Positions 3,757 through 63,020 of a DNA stretch of 64,000 nt are shown here, piece after piece. The stretch is from an uncultured Thermoleophilia bacterium (GTDB taxonomy: Bacteria; Actinomycetota; Thermoleophilia; UBA2241). The DNA lies in the NCBI GenBank assembly GCA_963705085.1, contig CAVPIV010000004.1:794193-858192 (forward strand), written 5' to 3'. Under the pieces are notes generated by a model, which was not told where the DNA came from, made no database searches, and saw only the letters and a program-made list of their open reading frames with translations. Position numbers and translations under genes: made by a program. Positions within the stretch are counted from its first letter, which is position 1. Every line of letters starts with the position of its first letter.

Positions 3757-7214
<3,458 letters not shown>

Positions 7215-16727: not shown

Positions 16728-17041
16728 GCCCCGGTCACGCCGGCTGGAACGGGGCCCTGCGAACACACGGCGTCACTCCTGTATGCAGTCCTGGCTACGT
16801 TCTCTCACGGAATCGCCGTCGTACGCCGGGCCGAGCCCGCAAACGCGGGTATAGTCGTCGTGAGAGAGTGGGGAGGCCGTGCGCACTGCCGCGAGCAGCG
16901 TCCTGTCTGACGACGGCCGTGCACGCGTGGGCACGCTCTGTGCAGGCCGCCCGCCCCGGTGCGGGGCCCCGACCTGTGGTGCGCTGTGCTTCTCCGCAGC
17001 GCCCGCGGCCGGCGATCGAGGGTGAGCAGGAGGTCAATCAC

Positions 17042-18553: not shown

Positions 18554-18715
18554 GCTCTCCCGCGCTCGCCCCCGTGCGGCCAGGCTCGAGCACACGCGCC
18601 ACTACCTGCTCCTCAAGAACACGGCCAAGAGGCTGGCGCCCGCCCTCGTCAAGCTGCCGCGGCCCGTCGACGACACCGACACATCGAGCATGTGCAGCGG
18701 AGATCGCCTACGTCA

Positions 18716-19701
18716 TGGCGTGGCCGCCTGAGGTGACCAAGCCCACCGTCGGTCTGGTCAAGGACCCCGATGTGCCGCCCTACTGGACGAAATACAGGCG
18801 CTTCCTGGAGGCGAACCAGATCCCCTACCGCCTGTACGACATCCACCGTTCCGACTGGCGCACCCGCGCCGCTGACCTGGACCTCGTCCTCTGGCGTCCC
18901 ATGAGCTTCCCCTACGAGCTCGAGGAGTGCCGTCGCAAGTTCTGGCTGATGGAGAACGTGCTCGGCAAGCTGTGCTATCCCTCGCTGGCGGAAGCCCTCA
19001 TCTACGAGGACAAGCTGCTCCAGTACGAGCTCCTCCAGCATCACAACTTCCCGGTCGTGCCCACCTTCGTCTCGCACAGCGAAGGCGAAGCGCTCGCGTT
19101 TGCGGCATCCGCGTCCTATCCGGCCGTGTGGAAGATCGGCTGCGGGGCCGGCTCGCTGGGGGTCGAGCTGGTCAAGGATCGGCGAGCGGCGGTGCGGCGG
19201 ATCCGACAGGTCTTCTCGTTCGCCGGCCGCCGCACCTACTGGCCGTACGCCGGTCAAAAGGACTACGTGTACCTGCAGCGTCTGGAACCAAACGCCGGCT
19301 ACGATCTCAGGGTGATGGTGATCGGCGACACGATCCTGGGCTACCACCGAGCGGTCCCGCATGGCGACTTCCGCGCCTCCGGCATGGACACGACCTACCA
19401 CCGCTCGATCCCCGAGGGGGCCATCCACCTCGCGCGACGCGTACGCGATGCCCTCGGCCTGACCATGCTCGCCCTCGACATGCTGGCCGATCGCACGGAG
19501 CGCCGCTTCTCAATCATCGAGGTCTCGCTCTTCACGCAGATCAGAGAGGAGTTCAAGCTCGAGGTCGACGGCGTCACGGGATCGTATCGCCCGGACGGCG
19601 ATGGCTACCGCTTCGTTCCGGGACGGGTCGTTCCCCACGACCTGATGCTCGAGGAGCTCCTCATGACGAAATGGATAACGCCGCGAGGCGCAACGGGGTG
19701 A
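18716..19701 (+). CDS. ATP-grasp domain protein (RimK-like); possible N-terminal extension from 18546 via a +1 frameshift
   Basis: ATP-grasp fold motifs (AVWKIGCGAGSLGVELV, YDLRVMVIGD, IEVSLF); upstream ORF 18546-18731 is coding-like and overlaps the mttB stop. Confidence 0.65.
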
Positions 19702-19903: not shown

Positions 19904-20137
19904 TCAGCCGGCGACCGCGCGGCGCCCGGCCACCTCGTAGCCCTCGTCTCTGACGGCCGCTTCGACGCTCTCGAGCGAGACCTGGTCGGCGTCGAAGTCG
20001 ACCGTGACGATCTTCTCGGCGACGTCGACGGCGACCTGGTCGACGCCGTCCAGCGCGCCGACGGCGCCCTCGATCGCCATCTTGCAGTGGTTGCAGGAGA
20101 TCCCCGGAACCTCGAGGACAGCGTGGCTGGTCGTCAT
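19904..20137 (-). CDS. copZ: Heavy-metal-associated domain copper chaperone (CopZ-like)
   Basis: GISCNHCKMAIE metal-binding motif in an HMA fold. Confidence 0.8.
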   Translation of the reverse strand: MTTSHAVLEVPGISCNHCKMAIEGAVGALDGVDQVAVDVAEKIVTVDFDADQVSLESVEAAVRDEGYEVAGRRAVAG

Positions 20138-47055: not shown

Positions 47056-47466
47056 TCAGTCCACGAGCTCGGCCGGCCCAAACCCGGGACCGCGGCCGTT
47101 CTCCCGCCAGGGGATGAGGTAGGAACGCACCTCAACGCCGGGGCACTCGTTCTCGAGCAGCGTCCTCGCCCGGCGCAGATCGCGCTCCAGCAGCTCCTGC
47201 TGATCGAAGCCGAACCCGCCGAGGACCCGCTCGTAGGCTCCGCACTCCTGGTGCGACACGAGATGGATCGTCCGTAGCCCTTGCGTCTCGAGGTGGACGC
47301 GCACGGCGTCGAGGGCGAAGCGCCGCTCCCCGCCGGAGCGCGTGAAGAGCAGGGGGCCGCCGGGGATGAGAATGCGGTCCGCGTCCGGCACGCCGAGCCA
47401 CGCCTGCAGCGTGCTGAGAGGGCCGGCGATCCGGCCGTCCGAGCAGGCGATGACGAGCGTCTTCAT
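47056..47466 (-). CDS. Small beta-carbonic-anhydrase-like protein
   Basis: CSDGR and HQECG motifs spaced as in beta-CA zinc ligands; only 136 aa. Confidence 0.45.
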   Translation of the reverse strand: MKTLVIACSDGRIAGPLSTLQAWLGVPDADRILIPGGPLLFTRSGGERRFALDAVRVHLETQGLRTIHLVSHQECGAYERVLGGFGFDQQELLERDLRRARTLLENECPGVEVRSYLIPWRENGRGPGFGPAELVD

Positions 47467-47946
47467 CGCGGGGGGCCGTGCGAGAGTTCGTGCACCGCGG
47501 ACCACCTGTCTGCGCTCACCCAACTACCCTTGGCCGTCGCAGAAGGCGAGAGAGCGTCCCCTGGATCCGAGACGGCCCTGAGCACCCTGCGGCGTGAAGC
47601 TGTTGTCGACCGCTTGACAGGAAAGATGAGCCCCAAGCGATACAGGTCGGGTGGCGGAGCGGCAGACGACGGCACCTGTCCTCGGCATCGACGTGGTCGG
47701 CGTCGACGTGCGGGACCCGGACATGATGCCGCCACCACGGCGATCCGGGCGCCGCGCGGTGACGACAGGTACGTCGGCGGCCGCCTTACGGGCATGGCGC
47801 CGGTTTGCCCGAGCAAGCGCGCCCACGCCAGGGTGGAGCTACGGCCACCTTGTGCCGGCGACAGGGCGCTCCGATAATGGGAAGCGCTCAGCCACCGGAT
47901 GCCGTTTCCACCACGGCCGCCCCGGACCACTCCAAGAGGCCCCTCG

Positions 47947-49032
47947 ATGAACACAGCACGACGAGATCCTGTGCGGAGGCTCTGTCAGCGAATCCTGGAC
48001 GGTCACGCCCCGGACGAGATGGAGCTGTGCGGGCTGCTCGAAGCAGGCGGTCGGGACAGGGAGACGATCTGCGAGGCCGCCAGACAGATGCGAGCACGCA
48101 CGTCCGGAGATGTCGTCTTCCTCTATGGGTTCGTCTACTTCTCGACGTACTGTCGCAACCGCTGCGCCTTCTGCCTCTATCGCGCGAGCAACCCGCTCAG
48201 CCCTCGCTATCGCAAGACGCAGGACGAAGTGCTGGAGGCATGTCGTGCTCTGGCGACGTCCGGCGTCGTCCTCCTCGACCTCACGATGGGCGAGGACCCT
48301 GCCATTCACGACGATCCGGAGTACCGCTCTCTCCTGGATCTGGTCGCCGCCGTGGCCGATGAAACGAACCTTCCGCTCATGATCTCGCCGGGTCTCGTGC
48401 CGGGCGCGGTGCTCGGCGCCCTGCGAGAGCGGGGCGCCACGTGGTACGCCCTGTACCAGGAGGCGCACGACGGGGAGCTTTACGCTCGTCTCCGTCCCGG
48501 ACAGCCCTTCCCGGCGCGCGCCGCCGCGCGCAGCGCGGCCCGGCGCGCCGGCCTCCTCGTCGAGGACGGAATCATGACGGGAATCGGCGATACCCCTCGC
48601 GACAGGGCGCGCTCGATCGTGGACATGCGAGCCGCCGACTGGGAGCAGATTCGGGTCATGAGCTTCGTTCCGCAACAGGGGACGCCGCTCGCGACGGTCT
48701 CTTCGCCGTCCGACGACGCCGAGTTGCTCACGATCGCGGCGATGCGCCTGGCCATGCCGGACCGCCTCATCCCGGCGTCCCTCGACGTGGCCGGCATCGA
48801 CGGTCTGGAGCCGCGACTGAACGCCGGGGCCAACGTGGTGACGTCCATCGTACCTCCCCACAGCGGGTTTCTCGGCGTCTCGCAGGCCGATCTCGGCGTC
48901 GACGAGGGGCAGCGCACGGTCGCGAGCGTCGTGTCGCGGCTCGAGGCGCTCGGGCTGCGCGCCGGTTCGGTCGACCAGTACCGTGAGCGCCTGACGGCGC
49001 TGTCGGCCCAGACCGCGGCGGTCGTGGCATGA
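47947..49032 (+). CDS. pylB: Radical-SAM 3-methylornithine synthase PylB homologue
   Basis: FVYFSTYCRNRCAFCLY CxxxCxxC, LDLTMGEDP, LPLMISPGL, RLIPASLDVAGIDGLEPRLNAGANVVTSIVPP. Near-collinear with archaeal PylB. SD AAGAGG. Confidence 0.85.
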   Translation: MNTARRDPVRRLCQRILDGHAPDEMELCGLLEAGGRDRETICEAARQMRARTSGDVVFLYGFVYFSTYCRNRCAFCLYRASNPLSPRYRKTQDEVLEACRALATSGVVLLDLTMGEDPAIHDDPEYRSLLDLVAAVADETNLPLMISPGLVPGAVLGALRERGATWYALYQEAHDGELYARLRPGQPFPARAAARSAARRAGLLVEDGIMTGIGDTPRDRARSIVDMRAADWEQIRVMSFVPQQGTPLATVSSPSDDAELLTIAAMRLAMPDRLIPASLDVAGIDGLEPRLNAGANVVTSIVPPHSGFLGVSQADLGVDEGQRTVASVVSRLEALGLRAGSVDQYRERLTALSAQTAAVVA

Positions 49033-49164: not shown

Positions 49165-49980
49165 GTGACCCGCCTCACCCCCAGAGACACTCACGATCTC
49201 GTGGCCCGGGTTCACCGCCTCGACCGCACGCTGCTCGACGCCTGCGGCCTCGACTTGCTGGCGCTCGCCGCCCGAGCCGCGGGACGGGCCCCCGCCCATG
49301 TGAACGAGCGCCTCGCCGGCGCGCGCGTCGCAGCCATCCCGATGACTGCCGGCCAAGGTGTGATTCCGGGCTTCAGCCAGGGCGTGGCGGGCGTGCTGCG
49401 TCATCTCACCTGCACGGCCTGGGTCACGGACGCCGTCGACGTGTCGGGCGTCGACGAGGCCGTCAACGCCGGAGCGACCGTCGTCTTCCTCGCCGACGAC
49501 AGTCGTTTCATCGCCCTGAACATCGTCGAAGGACGATGCGTCAACAACGATACTTGCACAGCGGACGGCTACGTCGCAGCGCTGGCGGCGGCCGCAGGGG
49601 ACCTCCGGAACCGCTCGGTCCTCCTGCTTGGGCTGGGGCCGATCGGGCGCGCCGCGGCGCGCCGCCTGCTCGAGCACGGCGCGCGCGTCTGGGTGGCCGA
49701 ACCGGATCCGGAACGACTGCGCGCCGGACTCGACGACTACCCCGCGCTGCGGCCGGCCACGATCCAGGACGGGCTCGGCCGCTGCAAACTCATCCTCGAC
49801 GCCACACCGGCGCGAGGTCTCGTGGGCGCGGCCGACGTGGACCACGACACGATCGCGGCCGTGCCGGGCCTGCCGTCGGGCTTCACCGCAGAGGCCCAGG
49901 CAAAGCTCGGCGCCCGCCACATTCACGACCCGCTGGCCGTCGGCGTGGCTGTCATGGCCGTCCGCTCGCTCGTCCGGTGA
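49165..49980 (+). CDS. pylD: PylD homologue (3-methylornithyl-N6-lysine dehydrogenase)
   Basis: IPMTAGQGVIPGF, VTDAVDVSGVDEAVNAGATVVFLADDSRFIALNIVEGRCVNNDTCT, DATPARGL..VPGLP..EAQAKL..DPLAVG collinear with PylD; GTG start. Confidence 0.8.
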   Translation: MTRLTPRDTHDLVARVHRLDRTLLDACGLDLLALAARAAGRAPAHVNERLAGARVAAIPMTAGQGVIPGFSQGVAGVLRHLTCTAWVTDAVDVSGVDEAVNAGATVVFLADDSRFIALNIVEGRCVNNDTCTADGYVAALAAAAGDLRNRSVLLLGLGPIGRAAARRLLEHGARVWVAEPDPERLRAGLDDYPALRPATIQDGLGRCKLILDATPARGLVGAADVDHDTIAAVPGLPSGFTAEAQAKLGARHIHDPLAVGVAVMAVRSLVR

Positions 49981-50097: not shown

Positions 50098-50187
50098 GGA
50101 GGGGTGGCAGAGTGGCTCATTGCACCGGTCTTGAAAACCGGCAACGGCGAGAGCCGTTCGTGGGTTCGAATCCCACCCCCTCCGCCA
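50098..50187 (+). tRNA. tRNA-Ser (anticodon UGA), type II
   Basis: GGAGGGG acceptor, anticodon loop CUUGAAA, long variable arm, GGUUCGAAUCC, CCA encoded. Confidence 0.9.
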
Positions 50188-50396: not shown

Positions 50397-50717
50397 ATGG
50401 AAGAACTGACCCTCGCCGTCCCGGGCATGTGGGCGGACCACCACGTGATCACCGTGCGCGAACTCCTGCGCGACGCGGGCATCTCGTCGATCGTCGCAAG
50501 CGCCCGCGACGCGTCCGTCCGCCTCACGTACGATCCGTCTCTGACGAGCCCGGCGCAGATCGCGGCCCTCCTCAAGGACGGCGGCTACCCCGCTGGAGAA
50601 GCCGAGAAGCCGGCGGCGTCGCCCACGAACAAGCCCGCCTGGGCGACGGCCGGTGTGCGCGTCACCGCCACCAACTCGATTGACCTGATCATGTCCGGGG
50701 ACCACCGGAAGTACTGA
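50397..50717 (+). CDS. Cysteine-less HMA-fold protein (GMWADHH replaces GMxCxxC); candidate Ni/metal chaperone for CODH
   Basis: TLAVPGMWADHHVITVRELLRDAGISSIVASARDASVRLTYDP..IAALLKDGGYPA aligns to the HMA ferredoxin-like fold; 120 nt upstream of cooS. Confidence 0.5.
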   Translation: MEELTLAVPGMWADHHVITVRELLRDAGISSIVASARDASVRLTYDPSLTSPAQIAALLKDGGYPAGEAEKPAASPTNKPAWATAGVRVTATNSIDLIMSGDHRKY

Positions 50718-50839
50718 TGCCACCCCAGACTGCCCAGCGCACACCCCGATCACACTGCCGCTGCCACCCAAGGAGCGGAGACCGACACTGCCGCGCCATC
50801 CTCCGCCTGCACCTGGGCCGCGGCCGAAGGAGCTGACCA

Positions 50840-52921
50840 ATGGACGACGAGAAGAGCGAGGAAGTCAAAGCCGGAGGCGCGAAGAGCATCGACCCGGCTG
50901 CCCTCGAGATGCTGCGCCACGCCGACGAGTGTGGCGTCGACACCGTGTTCCATCGTGCTGATCACATGAAGCCCTGCCCCATCGGCCAGGACGGCGCCTG
51001 CTGCCGCATCTGTTCGATGGGGCCCTGCCGCCTCGTCGGCAAGGACGCCGAGAACAAGGTGGGCCTTTGCGGCGCGGACCTGCCGACCGTGGCGTCCCGC
51101 CACTTCGCCCGGCAGGTCGCCGGCGGCGTCTCGGCCCACTCCGACCACGGCCGCGACATGGCCATGACCCTGCACGCCGTGGCCACCGGCCAGGCGCCGG
51201 GTTACAAGATCAAGGACGAGCAGAAGCTCACGGCCGTGGCTGGCTACATGGGCATCCCTACGGCCGGCCGTGAGGTCAACGACATCGCCCTCGACGTGTC
51301 CCTCAAGGCGCTCGAGCAGTTCGGCCAGCCGTTCGGCGAGATCATCTACACCAAGCGTGCGACGCCGAAGCGCCAGGCGCTCTGGAAGAAGCTCAACCTG
51401 ACGCCGCGAGCGATCGATCGCGAGGTCGCTGAGGTAATGCACCGCACCCACGAGGGCGTCGACCTCGACGCCGAGAACATCCTCAAGAGTTCCCTGCGCT
51501 GTTCGCTCGCGGACGGCTGGGGCGGCGCCATGCTGAGCACCGACATCAGCGACATCCTCTTCGGGACGCCTTCCCCCCTCTCCAGCGAGGTCAACCTCGG
51601 CGTCCTCAAGGCCGATCAGGTCAACGTCGTGGTGCACGGCCACGAGCCCACCCTCTCGGCGATGCTCGTCGAGGCGGCCCGCGACCCGGAGCTCATCGCG
51701 GAGGCCAAAGCCGAGGGCGCCGAGGGCATCAACCTCGCGGGCATCTGCTGCACCAGCAACGAGATCCTGATGCGCTACGGCATCCCGCCGGCGGGCAACT
51801 TCCTCCACCAGGAGCTGGCCGTCCTCACCGGCGCCGTCGAGGCCATGGTCGTCGACGTCCAGTGCATCATGCAGGCCCTTGGCCCGCTCTCGCAGCGCTT
51901 CCACACGCAGCTCATCACGACGTCGCCGAAGGCCAAGATCCCGCACGCCGTGCACGTCGAGTTCGACGAGCACCGCGCCCCCGAGACCGCGGCCGAGATC
52001 ATCCGCATGGCGATCGCCAACTACAAGAACCGCGGCCCGATCCACATCCCCGACTACCACGAGCCGCTGATCGCCGGGTTCAGCCACGAGTACCTCAACT
52101 ACATGCAGGGCGGCTTCCACCGTGGCTCGTTCCGGCCGCTCAACGACGCCATCATCGCCGGCCGCATCCGCGGGCTGGCAGGCGTCGTCGGCTGCAACAA
52201 CGCCCGGGTGACGCAGGACGAGGGCATCGTCACGATGATCAAGGAGTTCATCGCCCGCGACGTCATGGTCGTCGTCACCGGCTGCGCCGCGACGGCCGGC
52301 GCCAAGGCCGGCTTCCTCAGCCCGGAGATCCTCGACGCCGCCGGCCCCGGCCTGCGCGAGGTCATGGAGGCGATCGGCATCCCGCCGGTGCTCCACCTCG
52401 GCTCGTGCGTCGACAACTCCCGCATCCTCACGGTGCTCACCCAGGTGGCCACCGAGGGCGGCCTCGGCGAGGACATCGACGACCTCCCGGCCGTCGGCCT
52501 CTGCCCGGAGTGGATGTGCGAGAAGGCCATCGCCATCGGCACCTACTTCGCCGCCTCCGGCGCGCACGTGATCTTCGGCGTGAGCAGCCCGGTCAAGGCC
52601 TCGAGCGTCGCCACGCGCCTCATGACCGAGGGCTGGGAGGAGCTCGTCGGCGGCGATCTCGAGTTCATCCCCGACTGGGGCGAGATGCTGGCGCGCTCGC
52701 TCGAGCTGATCGACGGCAAGCGCGCTGCTCTCAAGCTCAAGCCCTACGACCCTTCGCAGTACGGCGACAGCGGCGACTCGCCCTACTTCGACGCCATCCG
52801 CGAGTACCTCGCCGAGCGCGTCGAGGTCGAGACCGTGGGTTCGGGCATCTACCCCCTGGCCGAGGGCCACTCGCACGGCCACGACCATGACCACTCGCAC
52901 GACGAGGGAGAGGACAGATGA
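50840..52921 (+). CDS. cooS: Ni-dependent carbon monoxide dehydrogenase catalytic subunit (CooS/AcsA) with His-rich C-terminal tail
   Basis: CPIGQDGACCRICSMGPCRL..LCGA B/D-cluster motifs, C-cluster ligands, tail HSHGHDHDHSHDEGEDR; SD AAGGAG. Confidence 0.9.
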   Translation: MDDEKSEEVKAGGAKSIDPAALEMLRHADECGVDTVFHRADHMKPCPIGQDGACCRICSMGPCRLVGKDAENKVGLCGADLPTVASRHFARQVAGGVSAHSDHGRDMAMTLHAVATGQAPGYKIKDEQKLTAVAGYMGIPTAGREVNDIALDVSLKALEQFGQPFGEIIYTKRATPKRQALWKKLNLTPRAIDREVAEVMHRTHEGVDLDAENILKSSLRCSLADGWGGAMLSTDISDILFGTPSPLSSEVNLGVLKADQVNVVVHGHEPTLSAMLVEAARDPELIAEAKAEGAEGINLAGICCTSNEILMRYGIPPAGNFLHQELAVLTGAVEAMVVDVQCIMQALGPLSQRFHTQLITTSPKAKIPHAVHVEFDEHRAPETAAEIIRMAIANYKNRGPIHIPDYHEPLIAGFSHEYLNYMQGGFHRGSFRPLNDAIIAGRIRGLAGVVGCNNARVTQDEGIVTMIKEFIARDVMVVVTGCAATAGAKAGFLSPEILDAAGPGLREVMEAIGIPPVLHLGSCVDNSRILTVLTQVATEGGLGEDIDDLPAVGLCPEWMCEKAIAIGTYFAASGAHVIFGVSSPVKASSVATRLMTEGWEELVGGDLEFIPDWGEMLARSLELIDGKRAALKLKPYDPSQYGDSGDSPYFDAIREYLAERVEVETVGSGIYPLAEGHSHGHDHDHSHDEGEDR

Positions 52922-55206
52922 GCCGCTACATCGCCAAGCGCGCCATCCGCGGCGCCACCGCCCTCGTCGCCGAAGCCGAGAAGCTGGTCGCGGAGGCCAT
53001 CGAGGAACTCGGACCGGAGACCCCGGTGCAGTTCACGAATACCGCCTACTTCCTGCCCGTCATCTACGCATTCACGGGCAAGAAGGTCGAGACGCTGGGC
53101 GACCTGCCGCCCGTCCTCGCTCGCTGCAGGTCCCTCCTCCATCCGCTGCCCGCCGACACGATGTGGCTGCCCTATCTCGGCGAGACGCTCGACAGCGGGG
53201 TCGCCACCCTGTTCGCGGAGGAGGTCATCGAGGGCGTGCGCTTCGCCCGCAAGCAGGAGCCGCAGATCATCAAGTTCGACGGCGACGGCGATCACGGCGA
53301 CACGCACTTCTCAGCCGGTACCCTCGGCGTTCACATGGGCAAGATGAAGCTCAACGGCCCCATCGACGACGTCCAGCTCCGCGCCTGGGGCATCCAGCTG
53401 GTCGACGGCCGCATGCCCGGGTTCTGCGCCATCGTCGGCTGCGCCAAGAGCAACGAGGTCGCGGTCAAGATCGTCCGCGAGCTGCAGAGCCGCGGCATCC
53501 TCATCTTCCTCAGCGGCAACGTCAACGGGCGCAGCATCATCCACCAGTTGCAGGAGGAGGGCATCCAGCTCGGCTACGACACGTTCACGGTGCCCTTCGG
53601 CATCGACACGATCTCAGCCGTCTACGCCCTGGGCTTCGCCGCTCGCTCAGCGCTCACCTTCGGCGGCATGGACGCCGGCAACGCCCGCGACATCATGCTC
53701 TACAACAAGTTCCGGGTGTTCGCCTTCGTCCTCGCCCTGGGTGAGGTCGACGACCTCAAGTACGCGACCGCGGCCGGCGCTATCAGCTACGGCTTCCCGG
53801 TGATCGCGGACACCCGCATCCCGCAGATCCTCCCCACCGGCGTCACGACCTACGAGCATGTCGTGAGCATGCCGTTCGACGAGATTCCGGGCGCGGACGA
53901 CATGGAGCGCGCCGAGAAGCTCATCCAGCGCTGCATCGAGGTGCGCGGCGTCAAGGTCAAGATCACCAAGGTGCCGATCCCCGTCTCGTACGGATCGGCC
54001 TTCGAGGGCGAGCGCATCCGCAAGGAGATCATGTACGCCGAGTTCGGGGGCAAGCGCAGCAGGGCCTTCGAGTTCCTGCGCAGCAAGCCCTCGGACGAAG
54101 TCGAGGACGGCAAGATCACGGTCGTCGGCAAGGATTTCGGCGATGTCGAGGAGGGCGCCGCCCTGCCGCTCGGCATCGTCGTCGACGTCTCCGGCCGCAA
54201 GATGCAGGACGACTTCGAGCCGATCGTGGAGCGCCAGTTCCACTATTTCATCAACGGCATCGAGGGTGTCCAGCACAACGGCCAGCGCGACATCACCTGG
54301 ATCCGCGTCGGCAAGACCACCATCGCCAAGGGCTTCAAGCTCGAGCACTTCGGCAAGGTGCTCCACGCGCGCATTCACGAGGTCTTCGGCAACATCATCG
54401 ACAAGGTGCAGGTGCACCTCACGACCGTGCCCGAGGACGTCGGCACGCTCATCGAGGAGGCGCGCGAGGCGTACCGGCAGCGCAACGAGCGCATCGCCAA
54501 CCTCACCGACGAGTCGGTCGACACCTTCTACTCGTGCCTGCTCTGCCAGAGCTTCGCGCCCAACCACGTCTGCGTGGTCAACCCCGAGCGCGTGGGGCTC
54601 TGTGGCGCCTACAACTGGCTCGACTGCAAGGCGTCCTTCGAGATCAACCCGACCGGCCCCAACCAGCCCGTCCCCAAGGGCATCTGCATCGACCCGGTCA
54701 GGGGCGAGTTCACCGGCCCCAACGAGTATATCTACGCGCACTCCAACCAGACGGTCGACCGCGTGACGTTCTACTCGATCATGGAAGCGCCGATGACCTC
54801 CTGCGGCTGCTTCGAGTGCATCATGGTGCTCGTGCCCGAGGCCAACGGCTTCATGATCGTCAGCCGCGAAGACCCCAGCATGACCCCGTGCGGCATGACC
54901 TTCTCGACGCTGGCCGGCACCGCCGGCGGCGGCATGCAGACGCCGGGGATGATGGGCTTCGGCAAGTACTATCTCACCAGCGAGAAGTTCATCTCCGGCG
55001 ACGGCGGCATGCCGCGCATCGTCTGGATGAGCTCCTTCCTCAAGGAGAGCATGCGCCCCGAGCTCGAGGAGATCTGCGAGAGCGCCGGCTGCCCCGGCCT
55101 CCTCGACATGATCGCCGACGAGACGATCTGCACGAGCGTCGACGAGCTCCTCCCCTTCCTTGAAGAGAAGGGGCACCCCGCCCTCACCATGGATCCCCTC
55201 TTCTGA
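52918..55206 (+). CDS. acsB: Acetyl-CoA synthase (A-cluster subunit, AcsB/CdhC)
   Basis: A-cluster motifs CGCFECI, SCG..C; full-length ACS similarity; ATGA overlap with cooS. Confidence 0.9.
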   Translation: MSRYIAKRAIRGATALVAEAEKLVAEAIEELGPETPVQFTNTAYFLPVIYAFTGKKVETLGDLPPVLARCRSLLHPLPADTMWLPYLGETLDSGVATLFAEEVIEGVRFARKQEPQIIKFDGDGDHGDTHFSAGTLGVHMGKMKLNGPIDDVQLRAWGIQLVDGRMPGFCAIVGCAKSNEVAVKIVRELQSRGILIFLSGNVNGRSIIHQLQEEGIQLGYDTFTVPFGIDTISAVYALGFAARSALTFGGMDAGNARDIMLYNKFRVFAFVLALGEVDDLKYATAAGAISYGFPVIADTRIPQILPTGVTTYEHVVSMPFDEIPGADDMERAEKLIQRCIEVRGVKVKITKVPIPVSYGSAFEGERIRKEIMYAEFGGKRSRAFEFLRSKPSDEVEDGKITVVGKDFGDVEEGAALPLGIVVDVSGRKMQDDFEPIVERQFHYFINGIEGVQHNGQRDITWIRVGKTTIAKGFKLEHFGKVLHARIHEVFGNIIDKVQVHLTTVPEDVGTLIEEAREAYRQRNERIANLTDESVDTFYSCLLCQSFAPNHVCVVNPERVGLCGAYNWLDCKASFEINPTGPNQPVPKGICIDPVRGEFTGPNEYIYAHSNQTVDRVTFYSIMEAPMTSCGCFECIMVLVPEANGFMIVSREDPSMTPCGMTFSTLAGTAGGGMQTPGMMGFGKYYLTSEKFISGDGGMPRIVWMSSFLKESMRPELEEICESAGCPGLLDMIADETICTSVDELLPFLEEKGHPALTMDPLF

Positions 55207-55228
55207 TCCGCGACCTGTTGGAGTGCTG

Positions 55229-56179
55229 ATGACTGCTGTGGAGACACCTCTCGAGAAATGGCCCGGCTCCGTGCGTGAGGTCACGCTGGGCGGCGGAGCC
55301 CGCACGTCCGTCACGGTCGGCGGGGAAACCACACTGCCGTTCCTCGGCTTCGAAGGTGCCATGCCGCACCGTCCCGCCCTGGCTCTGGAGATCGAGGACC
55401 GCCGGCCCGAGGGCTGGTCGTCCGAGCTGCTCGCGGCCCTGGGGGAGGTCGTCGACGATCCGGCCGCGTGGGCCAGGCACGGGGTGGAGCTCGGCGCCGA
55501 CCTGATCGCGCTCAAGCTCGACAGCTGTCATCCGGACCGCGGCGACAACGACGCCGCCTACGCCGTCGACCGGGTCAAGCAGGTGCTCGCAGCGGTCGAC
55601 GTGCCGCTCCTCGTGTACGGGCCCGGCACAGCCGAAAAGGACAACGAGGTGCTCGTCGCCGTCGCCGATGCGACCAAGGGCGAGCAGCTCGCCCTCGGGG
55701 TCTGCGAGGAGAAGAACTACCGAACGATCGTCGCCGCCGCCCTCGGCAACAACCACCTCGTCATCGGCGAAACGCCGATCGACGTCAACCTCGCGAAGCA
55801 GCTCAACATCCTCATCTCGGACATGGGTCTGCCACTCGAACGGGTGCTCATGGACCCGAACACGGGAGCGCTTGGCTACGGCCTCGAGTACACGTACTCG
55901 GTCATGGAGCGCCTCCGGCTGGCGGCGCTCATGGGCGACGCGATGACCCAGCAGCCGATGATCTGCCAGGTCGGCTCGGAGGCCTGGCGGCAGAAAGAGG
56001 CGCGGGCCGCCACCGACGTCCCGGAGGCCTGGGGCGACCTCGCGACGCGCGGCGTGGCGTGGGAGATCGCGACCGGCATGACCCTGCTCGAGGCCGGAGC
56101 CGACATCCTGCTCCTCCGTCACCCCGATTCCCTGAGCGCTCTTGGCGCAGCGCTGGACGACCTCGTGAAAGGGGCCTGA
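55229..56179 (+). CDS. acsD: Corrinoid iron-sulfur protein small subunit (AcsD/CdhD)
   Basis: TIM-barrel CdhD similarity; SD GGAG. Confidence 0.85.
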   Translation: MTAVETPLEKWPGSVREVTLGGGARTSVTVGGETTLPFLGFEGAMPHRPALALEIEDRRPEGWSSELLAALGEVVDDPAAWARHGVELGADLIALKLDSCHPDRGDNDAAYAVDRVKQVLAAVDVPLLVYGPGTAEKDNEVLVAVADATKGEQLALGVCEEKNYRTIVAAALGNNHLVIGETPIDVNLAKQLNILISDMGLPLERVLMDPNTGALGYGLEYTYSVMERLRLAALMGDAMTQQPMICQVGSEAWRQKEARAATDVPEAWGDLATRGVAWEIATGMTLLEAGADILLLRHPDSLSALGAALDDLVKGA

Positions 56180-56181
56180 CC

Positions 56182-57531
56182 GTGGCTCTCACCGGACTGC
56201 AGATCTACAAGCTCCTGCCCCAGACGAACTGCAAGGAGTGCGGCTTCCCCACCTGCCTCGCCTTCGCCATGAAGCTCGCCCAGAAGGGCACTGAGCTCGA
56301 CAAGTGCCCGCACGTGAGCGACGAAGCCAAGTCGGCCCTGGACGCCGCCTCGGCGCCGCCGATCAAGCTGGTCGCCGTCGGCGCCGGCGAGCGCGCCTTC
56401 GAGATCGGCAACGAGGTCGTCCTCTTCCGTCACGAGAAGACCTTCTACCACCAGCCCGGCATCGTCGTCCGCGTCGCCAGCGACGATCCGGCGCTGGCCG
56501 AGAAGGCCGCTGCCGTCGCCGGCTACGAGATCGAGCGCGTCGGCATGAAGCTGCGACTCGACGGCCTCGCCGTCCAGCAGGCGGGCGACGCGGCCGCGTT
56601 CGCCGCGGCCGTGGCCGCGGCCCGCGCGGCCGCCCCGGGCCTTCCGCTGGTCCTCGAGAGCGGCGACGCCGCGGCCGTCGATGCTGCCCTGTCGGCCGGA
56701 GCCGCCGTCGAGAAGCCGCTCATCCACGGCGCCACGGCCGCCACCTGCGACGCCATGACCGCGGTGGCCAAGAAGCACGGCTGCCCGCTCGTCATCTGCG
56801 CCGAGGGCGGCGATCTCGGCGCCCTCGTCGATCTCTCCGACAAGGCGCGCGCGGCGGGCGTCGAGGACCTGATCCTCGACGCCGGCGCCGTGTCGCTGGC
56901 CGGCGATCTCGCAGCCCTCACGCAACTGCGCCGCCTGGCGCTCAAGAAGGGGGCCCGCGCGCTCGGCTTCCCGATCCTCGCCGACGCCGGCGCGCCCACG
57001 TGGCAGGCAGAGCTCATTCGCGCCGATCAGGCGATCGCCAAGTACGCGGGGGTCGTCGTCCTGGACCACATGGAGCCGGGCGAGATCTACGCGCTGCTGA
57101 CCCTGCGGCAGAGCATCTACACCGATCCGCAGAAGCCGATCCAGGTCGACCCGAAGCTCTACGAGGTCGGCACCCCCGGCCCCGACAGTCCGCTGCTGAT
57201 CACCACCAACTTCTCCCTCACGTACTTCTCCGTCTCCGGTGAGGTGGAGGGCTCGCGCGTACCGAGCTGGCTGCTGGTGGCGGACTGCGACGGCCAGTCG
57301 GTGCTGACGGCCTGGGCGGCCGGCAAGCTCGACGCCGAGAAGATCGCCAAGACCGTCAAAGCCTCCGGCATCGGCGACAGGCTCACCCACAAGAAGCTCG
57401 TGATCCCCGGCCACGTCGCCGGGCTCTCCGGCGAGGTCGAGGAAGAGCTGCCGGGCTGGCAGATCATGGTCGGCCCCCGCGACGCCGTCGACATCCCGAA
57501 CTACCTCAAGACCGTCTGGGTCGCGGCCTAG
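56182..57531 (+). CDS. acsC: Corrinoid iron-sulfur protein large subunit (AcsC/CdhE)
   Basis: N-terminal 4Fe-4S CKECGFPTCLAFAMKL..CPH motif, C-terminal B12-binding domain; GTG start. Confidence 0.85.
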   Translation: MALTGLQIYKLLPQTNCKECGFPTCLAFAMKLAQKGTELDKCPHVSDEAKSALDAASAPPIKLVAVGAGERAFEIGNEVVLFRHEKTFYHQPGIVVRVASDDPALAEKAAAVAGYEIERVGMKLRLDGLAVQQAGDAAAFAAAVAAARAAAPGLPLVLESGDAAAVDAALSAGAAVEKPLIHGATAATCDAMTAVAKKHGCPLVICAEGGDLGALVDLSDKARAAGVEDLILDAGAVSLAGDLAALTQLRRLALKKGARALGFPILADAGAPTWQAELIRADQAIAKYAGVVVLDHMEPGEIYALLTLRQSIYTDPQKPIQVDPKLYEVGTPGPDSPLLITTNFSLTYFSVSGEVEGSRVPSWLLVADCDGQSVLTAWAAGKLDAEKIAKTVKASGIGDRLTHKKLVIPGHVAGLSGEVEEELPGWQIMVGPRDAVDIPNYLKTVWVAA

Positions 57532-57536
57532 TCTCG

Positions 57537-59504
57537 ATGAGTGACTCGCCCGTGACGACGAGCACGACCGTGATGGCCACGGTCACGTTCTCGCCCTCCG
57601 GCGAGTCGATCGAGGTGCCGGTCGGCACCAGTCTGCTGGACGCCGCGATCCTCTGCGATCTCGACCTCCCCGCCCCCTGCGCCGGTCAGGGCCGATGCGG
57701 CCGCTGCCGCGTGCGCATCATGGGCGGGGAGGTCCAGCGCCGCAGCAACGCGGGTCTCGAGGTCGGCGAGATCGCCGAGGGCTGGGCGGTCGGCTGCAGT
57801 ACCTACGTGACCGGCCCAGTCGAGGTGGAGATACCGCCCCGACGGCGCGAGCGCGTACGACCGCACGGGCACGCGGTGGCTCAGCCGGAAGCTCTCCCGG
57901 CGACCTGTGACTGGCGACGCAACCCGTCCATTCGGAGCTTCTCGCTCGAGCTCGATCCTCCGTCGCTCGCCGACAACACGAGCGACCTCGACCGGCTCCA
58001 GCGCGAGCTGACGCGCCAGTTCGGTTTTGCCGGGCTACGGGCGGAGCTGCCCATCCTCCGGGAGCTCGGCCACGTCCTTCGGGCAGGGGACTGGAAGGTC
58101 CGCGTCACCCTCGAAATGAACGACTGGGCGCACGGGACGACGCTCCCGCCGCGCCTCGTCGACGTGCGGCCGATGCGGGAGATGCCGAGCGACTACGGCC
58201 TCGCCGTGGACGTCGGCACGACCAGCGTCGTCGCGTACCTGGTCGACTTCTCAACGGCGCGCATCGTCGATACCGCCAGCGCCTACAACAAGCAGATCTC
58301 GTGCGGCGAGGACGTCATCTCGCGGATCATCTACGCTCGCCGCCCCGGCGGTCTCGAGCAGCTCGAGACACTGGTCCTCTCGACCATCAACTTCCTCATC
58401 GGACTTCTCGTGGAGCGCAATCACATCACCCCGCGCGACATCCACGAGGTCGCCATCGCCGGCAATACGACCATGACGCACCTGCTCCTCGGCATCGATC
58501 CCCGCTATCTGCGCGAAGAGCCGTACATCCCCACCGTCGCGCAAGCGCCGCGTCTCCTGGCCGAGGATCTCAAGCTGGGTGTCAACGGACTGGCCCGGGT
58601 GCGTTGTCTCCCCGCCGTCGGGAGCTACGTGGGCGGCGACATCACGGCCGGAGTGATCTCCTCAGGGCTGTACGCAACCGAGAAGCTCTCCTTGTTCATC
58701 GACATCGGGACTAACGGCGAGATGGTCCTCGGCAACAAGGACTGGCTCCTCTCCTGCGCGTGTTCCGCCGGCCCCGCCTTCGAAGGCGGCGGCGTGAAGC
58801 ACGGCATGCGCGCCAGCGAGGGCGCCATCGAGGACGTCTACATCGACGATGAGTTCGAACCTTCGTACCGCACCATCGACGACGCTCCGCCCATCGGCAT
58901 CTGCGGGAGCGGGCTCATCGATCTCCTCGGCGAGCTGTTCCTCACAGGGCTCCTCGACAAGTCCGGCCACCTCAACCGGCATGCAAAGACGGATCGCGTT
59001 CGCGTGAGCGACGCCGTGTGCGAGTACGTTGTCGCCCGGGCGGGCGAGAACGACGCGACGCAGGACGTGGTCATCAACGAGACGGATATCGCCTCCCTCC
59101 TGCGCGCCAAGGCGGCGATCTACGCCGGCTACGAGGTCCTCTGCCGGAGTGTCGGCGTCGACCTGGCCGACGTGGAGCAGATCCTCATCGGCGGAGCGTT
59201 CGGCCAGTACATCAACGTCGAGAAGGCGATCCGGATCGGTCTGCTCCCTGATCTGCCCGTGGAGCACTTCCACTTCCTCGGCAACACGAGCGCGCAGGGC
59301 GCCTACGCCACCCTGCTCTGCGCGAACGTGCGCGGCGACGTCCGCGACGTCGCCGCCAAGATGACCTACCTCGAGCTGAGCGCCGACAACACCTTCATGG
59401 ATGAGTACACGTCGGCGCTGTTCCTGCCCCACACGGACCTCGATGCGTTTCCCAGTGTGCGGGGCGCCCTCGCCGCCCGCGGCATCGGAGTGGCCGGCGA
59501 ATGA
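57537..59504 (+). CDS. Reductive activase of corrinoid enzymes (RACo; 2Fe-2S ferredoxin plus ASKHA ATPase)
   Basis: N-terminal plant-type ferredoxin Cys motif (CAGQGRCGRCRV), ASKHA/DUF4445 domain. Confidence 0.8.
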   Translation: MSDSPVTTSTTVMATVTFSPSGESIEVPVGTSLLDAAILCDLDLPAPCAGQGRCGRCRVRIMGGEVQRRSNAGLEVGEIAEGWAVGCSTYVTGPVEVEIPPRRRERVRPHGHAVAQPEALPATCDWRRNPSIRSFSLELDPPSLADNTSDLDRLQRELTRQFGFAGLRAELPILRELGHVLRAGDWKVRVTLEMNDWAHGTTLPPRLVDVRPMREMPSDYGLAVDVGTTSVVAYLVDFSTARIVDTASAYNKQISCGEDVISRIIYARRPGGLEQLETLVLSTINFLIGLLVERNHITPRDIHEVAIAGNTTMTHLLLGIDPRYLREEPYIPTVAQAPRLLAEDLKLGVNGLARVRCLPAVGSYVGGDITAGVISSGLYATEKLSLFIDIGTNGEMVLGNKDWLLSCACSAGPAFEGGGVKHGMRASEGAIEDVYIDDEFEPSYRTIDDAPPIGICGSGLIDLLGELFLTGLLDKSGHLNRHAKTDRVRVSDAVCEYVVARAGENDATQDVVINETDIASLLRAKAAIYAGYEVLCRSVGVDLADVEQILIGGAFGQYINVEKAIRIGLLPDLPVEHFHFLGNTSAQGAYATLLCANVRGDVRDVAAKMTYLELSADNTFMDEYTSALFLPHTDLDAFPSVRGALAARGIGVAGE

Positions 59505-59532
59505 CGGACACCGCTGCGGGAAGGTTGACGAC

Positions 59533-60333
59533 ATGACCATGACCATCGCCGTGGCCGGCAAGGGCGGCACCGGGAAGACGACGCTCGCCGGCCTCATCAT
59601 CCGTCGCCTCGTCGAGGCCCAGGCGAGCCCGATTCTCGCCATCGACGCCGACCCGGCCAGCAACCTGAACACGGTGCTCGGTCTCCCCCTCGAGAAGACC
59701 GTCGGCGACGTCCGCGAGGAGACGAGCGAAAAGGCGCGGGCCAATCTCCTGGAGGCGGGCATCGCCAAGCGCGACCTGCTCGACTACGAGATCAACTCGA
59801 GCGTCGTCGAGGGCGTGGGCGTCGATCTGCTGGCCATGGGCCGGCCCGAAGGCCCAGGCTGCTACTGCGCCGCCAACAACATGCTGCGGGCGATCGTCGA
59901 CACCATTGCCGACGGCTACCCGTGGGTCGTGATTGACAATGAAGCCGGCCTCGAGCACCTCTCGCGGCGGACGACCCGCGATGTCGACGTGCTCTTCATC
60001 GTGAGTGACGCGACCGTGCGCGGCATCATCACGGCCGGCCGCGTGCGCGCCATCCTCGACGAGCTCCAGACCCGCGTGGGCCAGCATTACCTGATCGTCA
60101 ATCGCGCCGCCGAAGGGCTGACTCCGGAGATCGAGAGCGCCATCGCCGAGCAGCGCCTGGAACTGCTGGCGGTGCTCCCCAGCGATCCCCTTGTCGCAGC
60201 GCTCGACGCGAGCGGCCGGCCCATCAGCGAGCTCCCCGAAGACAGTCCCCTCAAGACTGCGTTCGCCAAAGTCCTCGACAGGCTCCCCATTGACGCTCTC
60301 GGCAAGGAGGCCGCACGTGCTGATCATCGGTGA
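59533..60333 (+). CDS. cooC: CooC/AcsF nickel-insertion ATPase
   Basis: P-loop GKGGTGKTT, MinD/ParA-like fold with CxC (GCYCAAN). Confidence 0.85.
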   Translation: MTMTIAVAGKGGTGKTTLAGLIIRRLVEAQASPILAIDADPASNLNTVLGLPLEKTVGDVREETSEKARANLLEAGIAKRDLLDYEINSSVVEGVGVDLLAMGRPEGPGCYCAANNMLRAIVDTIADGYPWVVIDNEAGLEHLSRRTTRDVDVLFIVSDATVRGIITAGRVRAILDELQTRVGQHYLIVNRAAEGLTPEIESAIAEQRLELLAVLPSDPLVAALDASGRPISELPEDSPLKTAFAKVLDRLPIDALGKEAARADHR

Positions 60334-61237
60334 GAATATCCATATCATCGCCCCGCCCGTCAAGCAGGCCATTGAGACTCGCGACGCCAAGTTCATCCAG
60401 GACCTGGCCGTGCGGCAGGTTGAGGCCGGCGCCGGCGTCGTCGACCTCAACATCGGGCCGCAGAAGAAGCTCGGCCACGAGGTGATGCCGTGGATCGTGC
60501 AGGCCGTGCAGGAGGTCGTGGACGTCCCGCTGTCGCTCGACACCACCAACCTCGCGGCGATGCGGGCCGGCCTCGAGGTCTGCAAGCTGCCGGCCGTGAT
60601 CAACTCCGCCTCCGCTGATCCCGAGCGGCTCGACAGCGTCATGCAGCTCGCCGCCGAGTTCGGCGCCAAGGTGATCGCGCTCACGATGGGCGTCGACGGC
60701 ATCCCGACGACGGCCGACGGTCGCGCCGGCATCGCCATGGAAGCTCTGCTCCCCGCCGCCGAGGCCGCCGGCATCCCGATGCCGGACGTCTTCCTGGACC
60801 CGCTGGTCCTCACCGTGACCTGCAACCAGGACGTCGCCGAGGCGGCCGTCGACGCCATCCGCATCTTCAAGCAGCTCTCCGACCCGGCGCCGACCACCGT
60901 CGTCGGTCTGTCCAACGTCTCCAACGGCTGCCCGTCGGAGTTCCGCCCGCTCATCAACCGCACGTATCTGGTGACGCTGATGGGCGCCGGCCTCGACGCG
61001 GCGATCGCCGACCCGCTGGACGAGAAACAGAACGAGTTCATCCGCATCGTCGAGCAGCGGGACGAGAGCACGCCGCTCGGCAAGCTCGTCGTGGCGCTCT
61101 ACGACGCCAGCGCGGCCATGGAGGACCTCGACCCTGCCCTGATCGACCATGACGACCCCGACCAGGTCGACATCTTCAAGACTTACCGCATGCTGCGGAA
61201 TCAGGTCATCTACGCGGACTCGTATCTGCGTATCTGA
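60317..61237 (+). CDS. acsE: Methyltetrahydrofolate:corrinoid/iron-sulfur protein methyltransferase (AcsE)
   Basis: Pterin-binding MeTr domain (IIGENIH, LSLDTTN, GLSNVSNG); SD AAGGAGG 6 nt before GTG. Confidence 0.85.
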   Translation: MLIIGENIHIIAPPVKQAIETRDAKFIQDLAVRQVEAGAGVVDLNIGPQKKLGHEVMPWIVQAVQEVVDVPLSLDTTNLAAMRAGLEVCKLPAVINSASADPERLDSVMQLAAEFGAKVIALTMGVDGIPTTADGRAGIAMEALLPAAEAAGIPMPDVFLDPLVLTVTCNQDVAEAAVDAIRIFKQLSDPAPTTVVGLSNVSNGCPSEFRPLINRTYLVTLMGAGLDAAIADPLDEKQNEFIRIVEQRDESTPLGKLVVALYDASAAMEDLDPALIDHDDPDQVDIFKTYRMLRNQVIYADSYLRI

Positions 61238-62791: not shown

Positions 62792-62884
62792 GGAGAAGTG
62801 GCCGAGTGGCTGAAGGCAACCGCCTGCTAAGCGGTTAAGGGGTGTCAAACTCCTTCCCGGGTTCGAATCCCGGCTTCTCCGCCA
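62792..62884 (+). tRNA. tRNA-Ser (anticodon GCU), type II
   Basis: GGAGAAG acceptor, anticodon loop CUGCUAA, long variable arm, GGUUCGAAUCC, CCA encoded. Confidence 0.9.
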
Positions 62885-62942
62885 ATCTCCGCCCGCCCAG
62901 GGTTTTCGCACTCGTCCTCCTCCGCTATACTTCGAAGTCCAC

Positions 62943-63020
62943 GCGCCTGTAGCTCAGCTGGATTAGAGCGTCGGTCTACGGAACCGAAGGTCACAGGTTC
63001 GAATCCTGTCAGGCGCGCCA
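62943..63020 (+). tRNA. tRNA-Arg (anticodon ACG)
   Basis: GCGCCUG acceptor, anticodon loop CUACGGA, GGUUCGAAUCC, CCA encoded. Confidence 0.9.

Follow-up and report, generated by a model that had tools for sequence, protein, structure and literature searches.

How does a complete gene set for carbon monoxide dehydrogenase/acetyl-CoA synthase (CODH/ACS) come to lie in an actinobacterial chromosome, and what would it do there? The question is raised by a 64,000-nucleotide stretch of contig CAVPIV010000004.1 from an uncultured Thermoleophilia bacterium, called the window below, in which a preliminary description placed contiguous cooS, acsB, acsD, acsC, RACo, cooC and acsE genes at 50840-61237 as the whole of the Wood-Ljungdahl pathway's carbonyl branch. 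All seven genes are present in that order on the plus strand, and every component gene of the branch was found. The extent given for them holds for these seven genes and fails at its start; the unit begins at 50397 with a conserved eighth gene before cooS. The analysis points to a single eight-gene operon at 50397-61237 (plus strand) that is predicted to encode a bacterial-type bifunctional CODH/ACS with all of its dedicated partners. The best overall explanation joins this operon to a Thermoleophilia-related chromosome and to vertical inheritance within the clade, and we give it a probability of about 0.9. The genes lie head to tail in the following order.

50397-50717, plus strand, protein of 106 aa with a heavy-metal-associated (HMA) fold (fold and sequence similarity; the eighth gene, absent from the preliminary description)
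50840-52921, plus strand, cooS/acsA, Ni-Fe CO dehydrogenase subunit of CODH/ACS (TIGR01702, 586 bits, cut-off 478)
52918-55206, plus strand, acsB, acetyl-CoA synthase subunit with the A-cluster (NF040764, 971 bits, cut-off 800)
55229-56179, plus strand, acsD, small subunit of the corrinoid iron-sulfur protein (NF003376, 389 bits, cut-off 280; Pfam CdhD)
56182-57531, plus strand, acsC, large subunit of the corrinoid iron-sulfur protein (NF003195, 533 bits, cut-off 306; Pfam FeS and CdhD)
57537-59504, plus strand, acsV (RACo), ATP-dependent reductive activator of the corrinoid protein (Pfam Fer2, RACo_linker, RACo_middle and RACo_C_ter)
59533-60333, plus strand, cooC/acsF-type P-loop ATPase for nickel insertion (Pfam CbiA and AAA_31; PDB CooC1)
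60317-61237, plus strand, acsE, probable methyl-tetrahydrofolate:corrinoid iron-sulfur protein methyltransferase (Pfam Pterin_bind, above cut-off)

All eight reading frames are unbroken. The overlapping or coupled starts and ribosome-binding motifs described earlier were recovered: the cooS stop and acsB start share the letters ATGA, cooC runs 17 nt into acsE, the remaining gaps among the cooS to acsE genes are 2-28 nt, and GGAG-like Shine-Dalgarno motifs precede most starts. The 122 nt between the HMA-fold gene and cooS is the one larger spacing, the others running from -17 to 28 nt. The longest open reading frames (ORFs) of acsD, acsC, cooC and acsE begin too early, and the start chosen for each was a start codon with a Shine-Dalgarno-like motif located past the upstream stop (55229, 56182, 59533 and 60317). 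By this rule acsD starts at an ATG past the acsB stop, acsC at a GTG 2 nt past the acsD stop and acsE at a GTG that carries an AAGGAGG motif; the cooS start is preceded by GAAGGAG. The genes probably form one transcription unit, because they share a single strand and tight gaps and because the gene order is kept in 60 of 67 related loci. ARAGORN and Rfam detected five ordinary tRNAs in the window; these were the only Rfam matches, and no riboswitch or other RNA element turned up close to the operon.

Assignment of the operon genes

The matches to the operon genes have E-values from 1e-17 to 1e-292, and chance is therefore excluded for their identities. The best solved-structure match of each component is its characterised counterpart. 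For CooS the best PDB match is 6YTT_B, the CODH from the CODH/ACS complex of Clostridium autoethanogenum (607 bits); the beta subunit of Moorella is more distant (471 bits). Aligned with 6YTT_B are the motifs HGHEP, CCT, DVQC, GCNN, TGCA and GSCVD, which we take to be the C-cluster ligands. AcsB contains the Pfam domains CODH_A_N (PF18537), CdhC and ACS_CODH_B_C and is the bacterial form of the enzyme, with the N-terminal CODH-docking domain present. Its best PDB match is the ACS of Carboxydothermus hydrogenoformans at 717 bits, followed by the Moorella alpha subunit at 689 bits, and the A-cluster cysteine motifs CLLCQSFAPNHVC...GLCGA and SCGCFE (CxxC...C...C and C-G-C) are kept relative to the C. 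hydrogenoformans protein.

AcsC has an N-terminal 4Fe-4S motif and matches PDB 2H9A over its full length (426 bits), and AcsV matches the RACo structure 3ZYY (536 bits) with residues 16-641 covered. The best PDB match of CooC is CooC1 (3KJE, E = 5e-18, 69 bits), and its P-loop (GKGGTGKTT) and nickel-binding CxC motif (CYC) both align with that protein. AcsE is closest to the Moorella methyltransferase MeTr (2E7F/1F6Y, 206 bits), its residues 1-238 aligning to residues 1-235 of 262. AcsE and AcsV are assigned at the family level, since their scores lie under strict NCBIfam cut-offs; the AcsE assignment is backed by its last position in the operon, which is conserved across related loci.

Host and genomic position of the operon

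The operon had been described as lying in an actinobacterial housekeeping backbone, and each of the gene groups named in support (the fhaA-pknB cluster, dnaK-hspR-clpB, topA-tmk-holB and the ino1/phosphatidylinositol genes) was verified. The window contains the following groups.

dnaK group: clpB, hspR (MerR family), dnaJ, grpE, hsp20 and dnaK
topA group: topA, tmk and holB, with a PSP1 gene
ino1 group: ino1, a CDP-alcohol phosphatidyltransferase and a GT4 glycosyltransferase
pknB cluster beside tRNA-Leu: kinase, fhaA, fhaB, PP2C, rodA, pbpA and pknB
tRNA genes about the operon: tRNA-Ser at 50098 and tRNA-Ser/Arg at 62792-63020

The kinase-fhaA-fhaB-PP2C-rodA-pbpA-pknB arrangement is typical of Actinomycetota and is known from Mycobacterium. 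A TopA search returned a 100% identical protein and then matches at 72-87% identity. Six of the top 120 matches are named; all six are Thermoleophilia or Actinobacteria at 74-84% identity, and Chloroflexota are absent among them. The best AcsB loci in GTDB representative genomes come from metagenome-assembled genomes (MAGs) labelled Thermoleophilia or Actinomycetes, many with isolate names that begin 'MFD'. These comparisons bear out the earlier assignment to Actinomycetota, and the host is best read as an uncultured Thermoleophilia-related lineage of that phylum. The anaerobic way of life suggested for it can reasonably be inferred.

The position of the operon was compared with two close relatives, L161 (188-kb contig, AcsB 90% identical) and L162 (1.26-Mb contig, AcsB 87% identical). 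In both, as at the window locus, the order is DUF4446-pheA-arginase-YkuD-serS, then the small protein followed by cooS-acsB-acsD-acsC-acsV-cooC-acsE, then a GyrI-like gene; L162 additionally has orf143 ahead of the GyrI-like gene. The backbone proteins SerS, PheA and arginase are 81%, 85% and 65% identical to those of L161, and CooS, AcsB, AcsE and AcsC are 93%, 90%, 89% and 81% identical. Acs and housekeeping proteins diverge from L161 in parallel. Homologues of AcsB and TopA were found on contigs of matching sizes (188,490, 138,320 and 871,685 bp). The window is GC-rich throughout: GC content in 2-kb segments is 0.65-0.73 across it and 0.65-0.71 in the operon, and GC at third codon positions (GC3) is 0.86-0.95 in the operon genes and 0.8-0.95 in real genes across the window. 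Within the clade the operon has probably been passed on vertically, its place between serS/tRNA-Ser and the GyrI-like gene staying fixed.

Several points weigh against this explanation. AcsV scores 678 bits against the strict NCBIfam cut-off of 800 (NF040756), and AcsE is under both of its NCBIfam cut-offs (236 against 259 and 203 against 370 bits). Consensus scans over 47.0-62.8 kb gave no convincing promoter or terminator; the counts were not above those of shuffled sequence, and no site was usefully positioned. Genes for the methyl branch and for the rest of an acetogenic metabolism (fhs, folD, metF, fdh, hydrogenase, Rnf/Ech and pta/ack) are not among the approximately 55 genes annotated in the 64 kb. 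The taxonomic placement comes from one marker (TopA), gene order and submitters' titles rather than from a multi-marker phylogeny. The assembly also has frameshift errors elsewhere, two of them in dnaK, so its sequence is not error-free.

The dnaK gene at 4261-6200 (minus strand) is split by its two frameshifts, and the protein is still readable across three frames. The tmk gene and a glycosyltransferase look N-terminally truncated. Long-read assembly indels are the likely cause, and ORF calls in the window need care for this reason. A pattern like that of dnaK is seen in the related loci L162 (13262-16574) and L008 (12769-14116), where acsC and acsV are fragmented by apparent frameshifts. The splits in dnaK and in the acsC and acsV genes of the relatives fit long-read indel errors. 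MAGs of the Microflora Danica project were assembled solely from Nanopore reads (PMC12313526).

Relationship to Chloroflexota operons

Inheritance within the clade leaves the question of how its ancestor obtained the operon. An AcsB search returned a 100% identical protein, followed by proteins of Thermoleophilia MAGs (74-90% identity) and, from 74% downwards, by Chloroflexota. The preliminary description had proposed an AcsB phylogeny as a check, and a neighbour-joining tree of 43 sequences was made, midpoint-rooted, without support values and limited to the best matches to the query. The window sequence groups with L161 inside a monophyletic clade made up solely of Thermoleophilia and 'Actinomycetes' MAGs, which supports vertical inheritance. 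The nearest sequences outside that clade are from Chloroflexota, and either an older exchange or shared ancestry may explain this neighbourhood.

One alternative is an old transfer between phyla, by which the ancestor of the Thermoleophilia clade received the operon from Chloroflexota, or passed it to them, so that the operon would not go back to the common ancestor of Actinomycetota. We rate it only slightly short of an even chance; it is a statement about origin alone, and vertical inheritance afterwards agrees with it. The Chloroflexota neighbours (Anaerolineae and Dehalococcoidia MAGs) have AcsB proteins 65-74% identical and CooS proteins 57-68% identical to those of the window, and Chloroflexota precede any other named phylum in the top 120 AcsB matches or the best 80 loci. 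Their operons have the identical eight-gene order (HMA-like gene, cooS, acsB, acsD, acsC, acsV, cooC, acsE), which includes the unusual HMA-like gene; several Chloroflexota loci differ by insertions between genes, and the host phylum differs. In the midpoint-rooted tree the clade adjoins a subset of Chloroflexota, and the named TopA matches, by contrast with those of AcsB, include no Chloroflexota. Against an old transfer stand the sampling, which took in the best-scoring homologues and left AcsB from other actinobacterial classes outside the comparison, the construction and rooting of the tree, and the strong conservation of AcsB in general. In the abstract of a 2021 paper, Jiao et al. reportedly argued that CODH/ACS was inherited vertically by other classes of Actinomycetota.

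Two further observations were made among the AcsB homologues. The protein of L054 (CAVZIK010000006.1, 3.56 Mb), a MAG labelled 'Actinomycetes bacterium', is 66% identical and nests among Anaerolineae, which could reflect a separate transfer or a mislabelled genome. P0079 and P0081 are intein-containing acetyl-CoA synthases, approximately 69% identical to the window AcsB; each is approximately 1,300 aa long and contains a LAGLIDADG domain (PF14528), joined in one of the two by an intein-splicing domain (PF14890).

HMA-fold protein upstream of cooS

The eighth gene has no Pfam match, and its NCBIfam matches are weak ones to MerP/CopZ; metal-binding domains of ATP7B in the PDB match it at E = 3e-19. 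In an AlphaFold2 model, residues 1-68 have a predicted local distance difference test score of approximately 87 and the tail approximately 50. Foldseek aligned the model with MerP, CopZ and ATP7B domains at a template modelling score of 0.9 and a root-mean-square deviation of approximately 1.0 Å. The protein shares the beta-alpha-beta-beta-alpha fold and sequence similarity with these domains and departs from them at the metal site, where its loop reads P-G-M-W-A-D-H-H-V and metallochaperones have GMxCxxC. It also adds a conserved C-terminal tail of approximately 35 residues that ends DLxMSGDHRKY, and its gene context is CODH/ACS rather than copper or mercury resistance. The protein resembles the metallochaperone family in fold and is not a member of it by the defining site.

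A census of homologues was made in 80 genomic loci retrieved with AcsB, 67 of which had sufficient upstream DNA. A homologue is present in 61 of the 80 loci, and in 60 of the 67 it lies on the same strand as cooS, nearly always 15-310 bp upstream. The gene occurs in the Thermoleophilia operons and in most Chloroflexota operons sampled. [WY][AG]DHH is found in all 61 homologues and CxxC in none, the D-H-H that replaces the CxxC site being invariant. The tails are of two types. Forty-two homologues end MSG[DE][HYF]R[KRM][YW], and approximately 18 Chloroflexota copies have a longer tail in which an RPLWPCPG motif replaces the MSGDHRKY ending. The proteins with the RPLWPCPG tail are 126-140 aa long and are encoded just upstream of cooS (L034, L049, L053, L055 and approximately 14 other Chloroflexota loci). 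A profile-free scan of 1.84 billion representatives found only 47 homologues at E <= 1e-10. Public names for these proteins are 'hypothetical protein', 'copper chaperone CopZ' or 'heavy-metal-associated domain-containing protein'. A literature search found no paper that ties an HMA/CopZ-like gene to acs clusters, and a 2026 paper on the genomic context of CODH mentions none of HMA, CopZ, heavy metal or chaperone.

From its fold, site chemistry and gene neighbourhood, the D-H-H protein would be an additional metal-handling or assembly factor. It could plausibly act as a histidine-based chaperone for nickel or another metal, or as an assembly or docking factor alongside CooC. That the protein with the W/Y-A/G-D-H-H loop is an undescribed CODH/ACS accessory factor is a tentative proposal with the odds against it; if true, the protein would form a new class beside the CODH maturation proteins CooC, CooJ and CooT. 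A separate canonical HMA-domain protein is encoded at 19904-20137 (minus strand; PF00403, 63.5 bits) between tRNA-Lys and a PSP1-domain gene, a context unrelated to the D-H-H-type protein of the acs operon.

Predicted reactions and metabolic direction

The biochemistry of CODH/ACS is established for the Moorella and Carboxydothermus enzymes and is reversible. By analogy, CooS/AcsA would interconvert CO2 and CO at its Ni-Fe-S C-cluster, and CO would move to the Ni-Ni-[4Fe-4S] A-cluster of AcsB. AcsE would take a methyl group from methyl-tetrahydrofolate and place it on the cobalt of the corrinoid protein (AcsC/AcsD), from which it would pass on to AcsB. AcsB would then condense methyl, CO and CoA into acetyl-CoA, a step that also runs in reverse. 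AcsV/RACo would re-reduce inactive Co(II) with ATP, and CooC would insert nickel.

The reversibility leaves room for a second use. The enzyme may be mainly oxidative and split acetyl-CoA, with CO2 and a methyl group as products, as it does in completely oxidising sulfate reducers or syntrophic acetate oxidisers, rather than serve acetogenesis or CO2 fixation. This direction is a serious alternative to acetogenesis because Thermoleophilia MAGs with a nearly complete Wood-Ljungdahl pathway were read as sulfate-reducing organoheterotrophs with dsrAB (PMC9326234). Nothing in the window bears on direction; dsr, apr, hydrogenase and Rnf genes are all missing from the genes annotated in it. We hold the oxidative reading as a real possibility that falls somewhat below an even chance.

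Comparison with known systems

Every component of the acs clusters of Moorella thermoacetica and Carboxydothermus hydrogenoformans has a counterpart in the window operon, AcsE and AcsV at the family level, and the motifs of the A-cluster, of the C-cluster and of CooC (CxC) are kept. The gene order differs from that of Moorella, which is cooC-acsA-acsB-acsC-orf7-acsF-acsD-acsE. The window operon also has the extra HMA-fold gene before cooS, its AcsB has an insertion of approximately 30 residues near position 118-150, and its host is a high-GC actinobacterium.

Wood-Ljungdahl enzymes had been called rare in Actinomycetota in the preliminary description, a statement that the literature has overtaken. 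The pathway was reported in 2020 for UBA1414, UBA9087, RBG-13-55-18 and the Hakuba single-cell genomes (PMC7325909) and in 2021 for Ca. Geothermincolia, Humimicrobiia and Aquicultoria (Jiao et al., as cited in PMC12917137), and a nearly complete pathway was described in 2022 for the Thermoleophilia MAGs ACT_02 and ACT_11 (PMC9326234). The present case shares the phylum with these reports, and the pathway was likewise deduced from uncultured genomes. It differs from the Hakuba genomes, which have a hybrid archaeal/bacterial acsED-cdhABC-acsC arrangement (PMC7325909), in that its complex is purely bacterial-type. The earlier studies report methyl-branch genes. Near-identical operons are present in many public MAGs, and the sequence of the window is public too.

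CODH/ACS in Thermoleophilia is thus already reported, and the fresh details are the undescribed eighth gene and a pylC-less pair of pyl genes. The operon leaves knowledge of the enzyme or the phylum unchanged. It adds a well-resolved case to the evidence for the ancient acetyl-CoA pathway in some uncultured Actinomycetota of soils and sediments, its strengths being an intact operon, a position common to two close relatives and a long contig. The example aids the reading of carbon cycling in anoxic terrestrial habitats and supplies material on how CODH/ACS moved between Chloroflexota and Actinomycetota. Its practical value lies in a small gene, conserved and unannotated, that offers a testable candidate for an accessory factor of CODH/ACS, and in the pyl cluster without pylC.

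Neighbouring pyl genes

Two genes of pyrrolysine biosynthesis lie directly upstream of the acs operon, between a carbonic-anhydrase-like gene and tRNA-Ser.

47899-49032, plus strand, pylB, intact (TIGR03910, 415 bits, cut-off 348)
49165-49980, plus strand, pylD, intact (TIGR03911, 217 bits, cut-off 150)

The gap between pylB and pylD is 133 bp in the window, compared with approximately 1.2-1.4 kb in more than 50 metagenome loci; in all four metagenome loci whose ORFs were inspected, pylC (394-414 aa) fills the gap. A tblastn search with the PylC proteins of these four loci found no match in the window. The 133-bp spacer, considered as a possible fused remnant of pylC, gave a local alignment score of 43 with the C-terminus of one PylC, compared with a shuffle mean of 29.5 (standard deviation 4.8, maximum 49), and the other PylC proteins aligned elsewhere. 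ARAGORN and Rfam found no tRNA-Pyl (CUA) in the window, and no class II PylS-like gene is among its annotated genes. The pylB/pylC/pylD set in the window is incomplete, and neither pylS, tRNA-Pyl nor a UAG-interrupted methyltransferase accompanies it. The pyl segment is absent from both L161 and L162, and a search on both sides of the pylB-pylD insert for att-like direct repeats or a piece of a tRNA gene found just short chance repeats. In this actinobacterium the pair may represent a set of pyrrolysine genes that is decaying or has been split. More weakly, it can be read as the mark of a Thermoleophilia lineage that uses, or once used, pyrrolysine. Just two Actinobacteria with PylRS genes are counted in a review (PMC11764691).

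Elsewhere in the window, an MttB-superfamily methyltransferase gene at approximately 16967-18553 (plus strand) is free of internal UAG codons, and the next gene, at 18574-19701 (plus strand), encodes a RimK-like ATP-grasp protein. The ATP-grasp gene was considered as a relocated pylC and was rejected, having RimK-family matches only and no match to TIGR03909. The gene between serS and pylB at 47056-47523 (minus strand) encodes a small protein whose match to PF20393, a family of putative carbonic anhydrases, stays under the threshold (27 bits, cut-off 30); this protein is 78% identical in L162 and absent in L161.

The MttB homologue (Pfam MTTB, 281 bits) and the pylB and pylD genes, which pass NCBIfam equivalog cut-offs, would be accounted for if the cluster served methylotrophy, with methyl groups of methylated amines or betaines entering through MttB-family methyltransferases for condensation with CO by ACS and the pyl genes remaining as a trace. 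This use is improbable. The MttB homologue, besides having no in-frame UAG, scores under the Pyl-type cut-off (354 against 525), and neither a cognate corrinoid protein nor a methyl-corrinoid:tetrahydrofolate methyltransferase gene lies beside it. The missing pylC, pylS and tRNA-Pyl and the lack of the pyl segment in both close relatives also count against it.

Recent acquisition and assembly chimerism as improbable readings

The preliminary description had also raised lateral acquisition of the operon and chimeric assembly joins. Recent acquisition and chimerism are very unlikely because of the shared flanks, the lack of a compositional step and the lack of a mobility gene among the genes annotated near the operon. 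A recent genomic island acquired by this genome would be in keeping with the tRNA genes that adjoin the operon and with the variation of the pylB-pylD segment just upstream between relatives. The same locus and flanks recur, with parallel divergence, in relatives with 87-90% AcsB identity, the composition of the operon runs into that of its surroundings with no break, and the integrases, transposases and att-like repeats looked for were not found; we regard such an island as highly improbable. Less probable still is an assembly or binning chimera in which an acs operon of Chloroflexota type was joined to a contig of an actinobacterium. The resemblance of the acs genes to Chloroflexota ones and an apparently long-read-only assembly with indel errors (PMC12313526 for related MFD MAGs) could be cited for it. 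Against it, both operon junctions are reproduced in the independent assemblies of L161 and L162 from other samples, GC3 is uniform, and the 100% identical AcsB and TopA proteins are both encoded on one contig of 1,368,786 bp.

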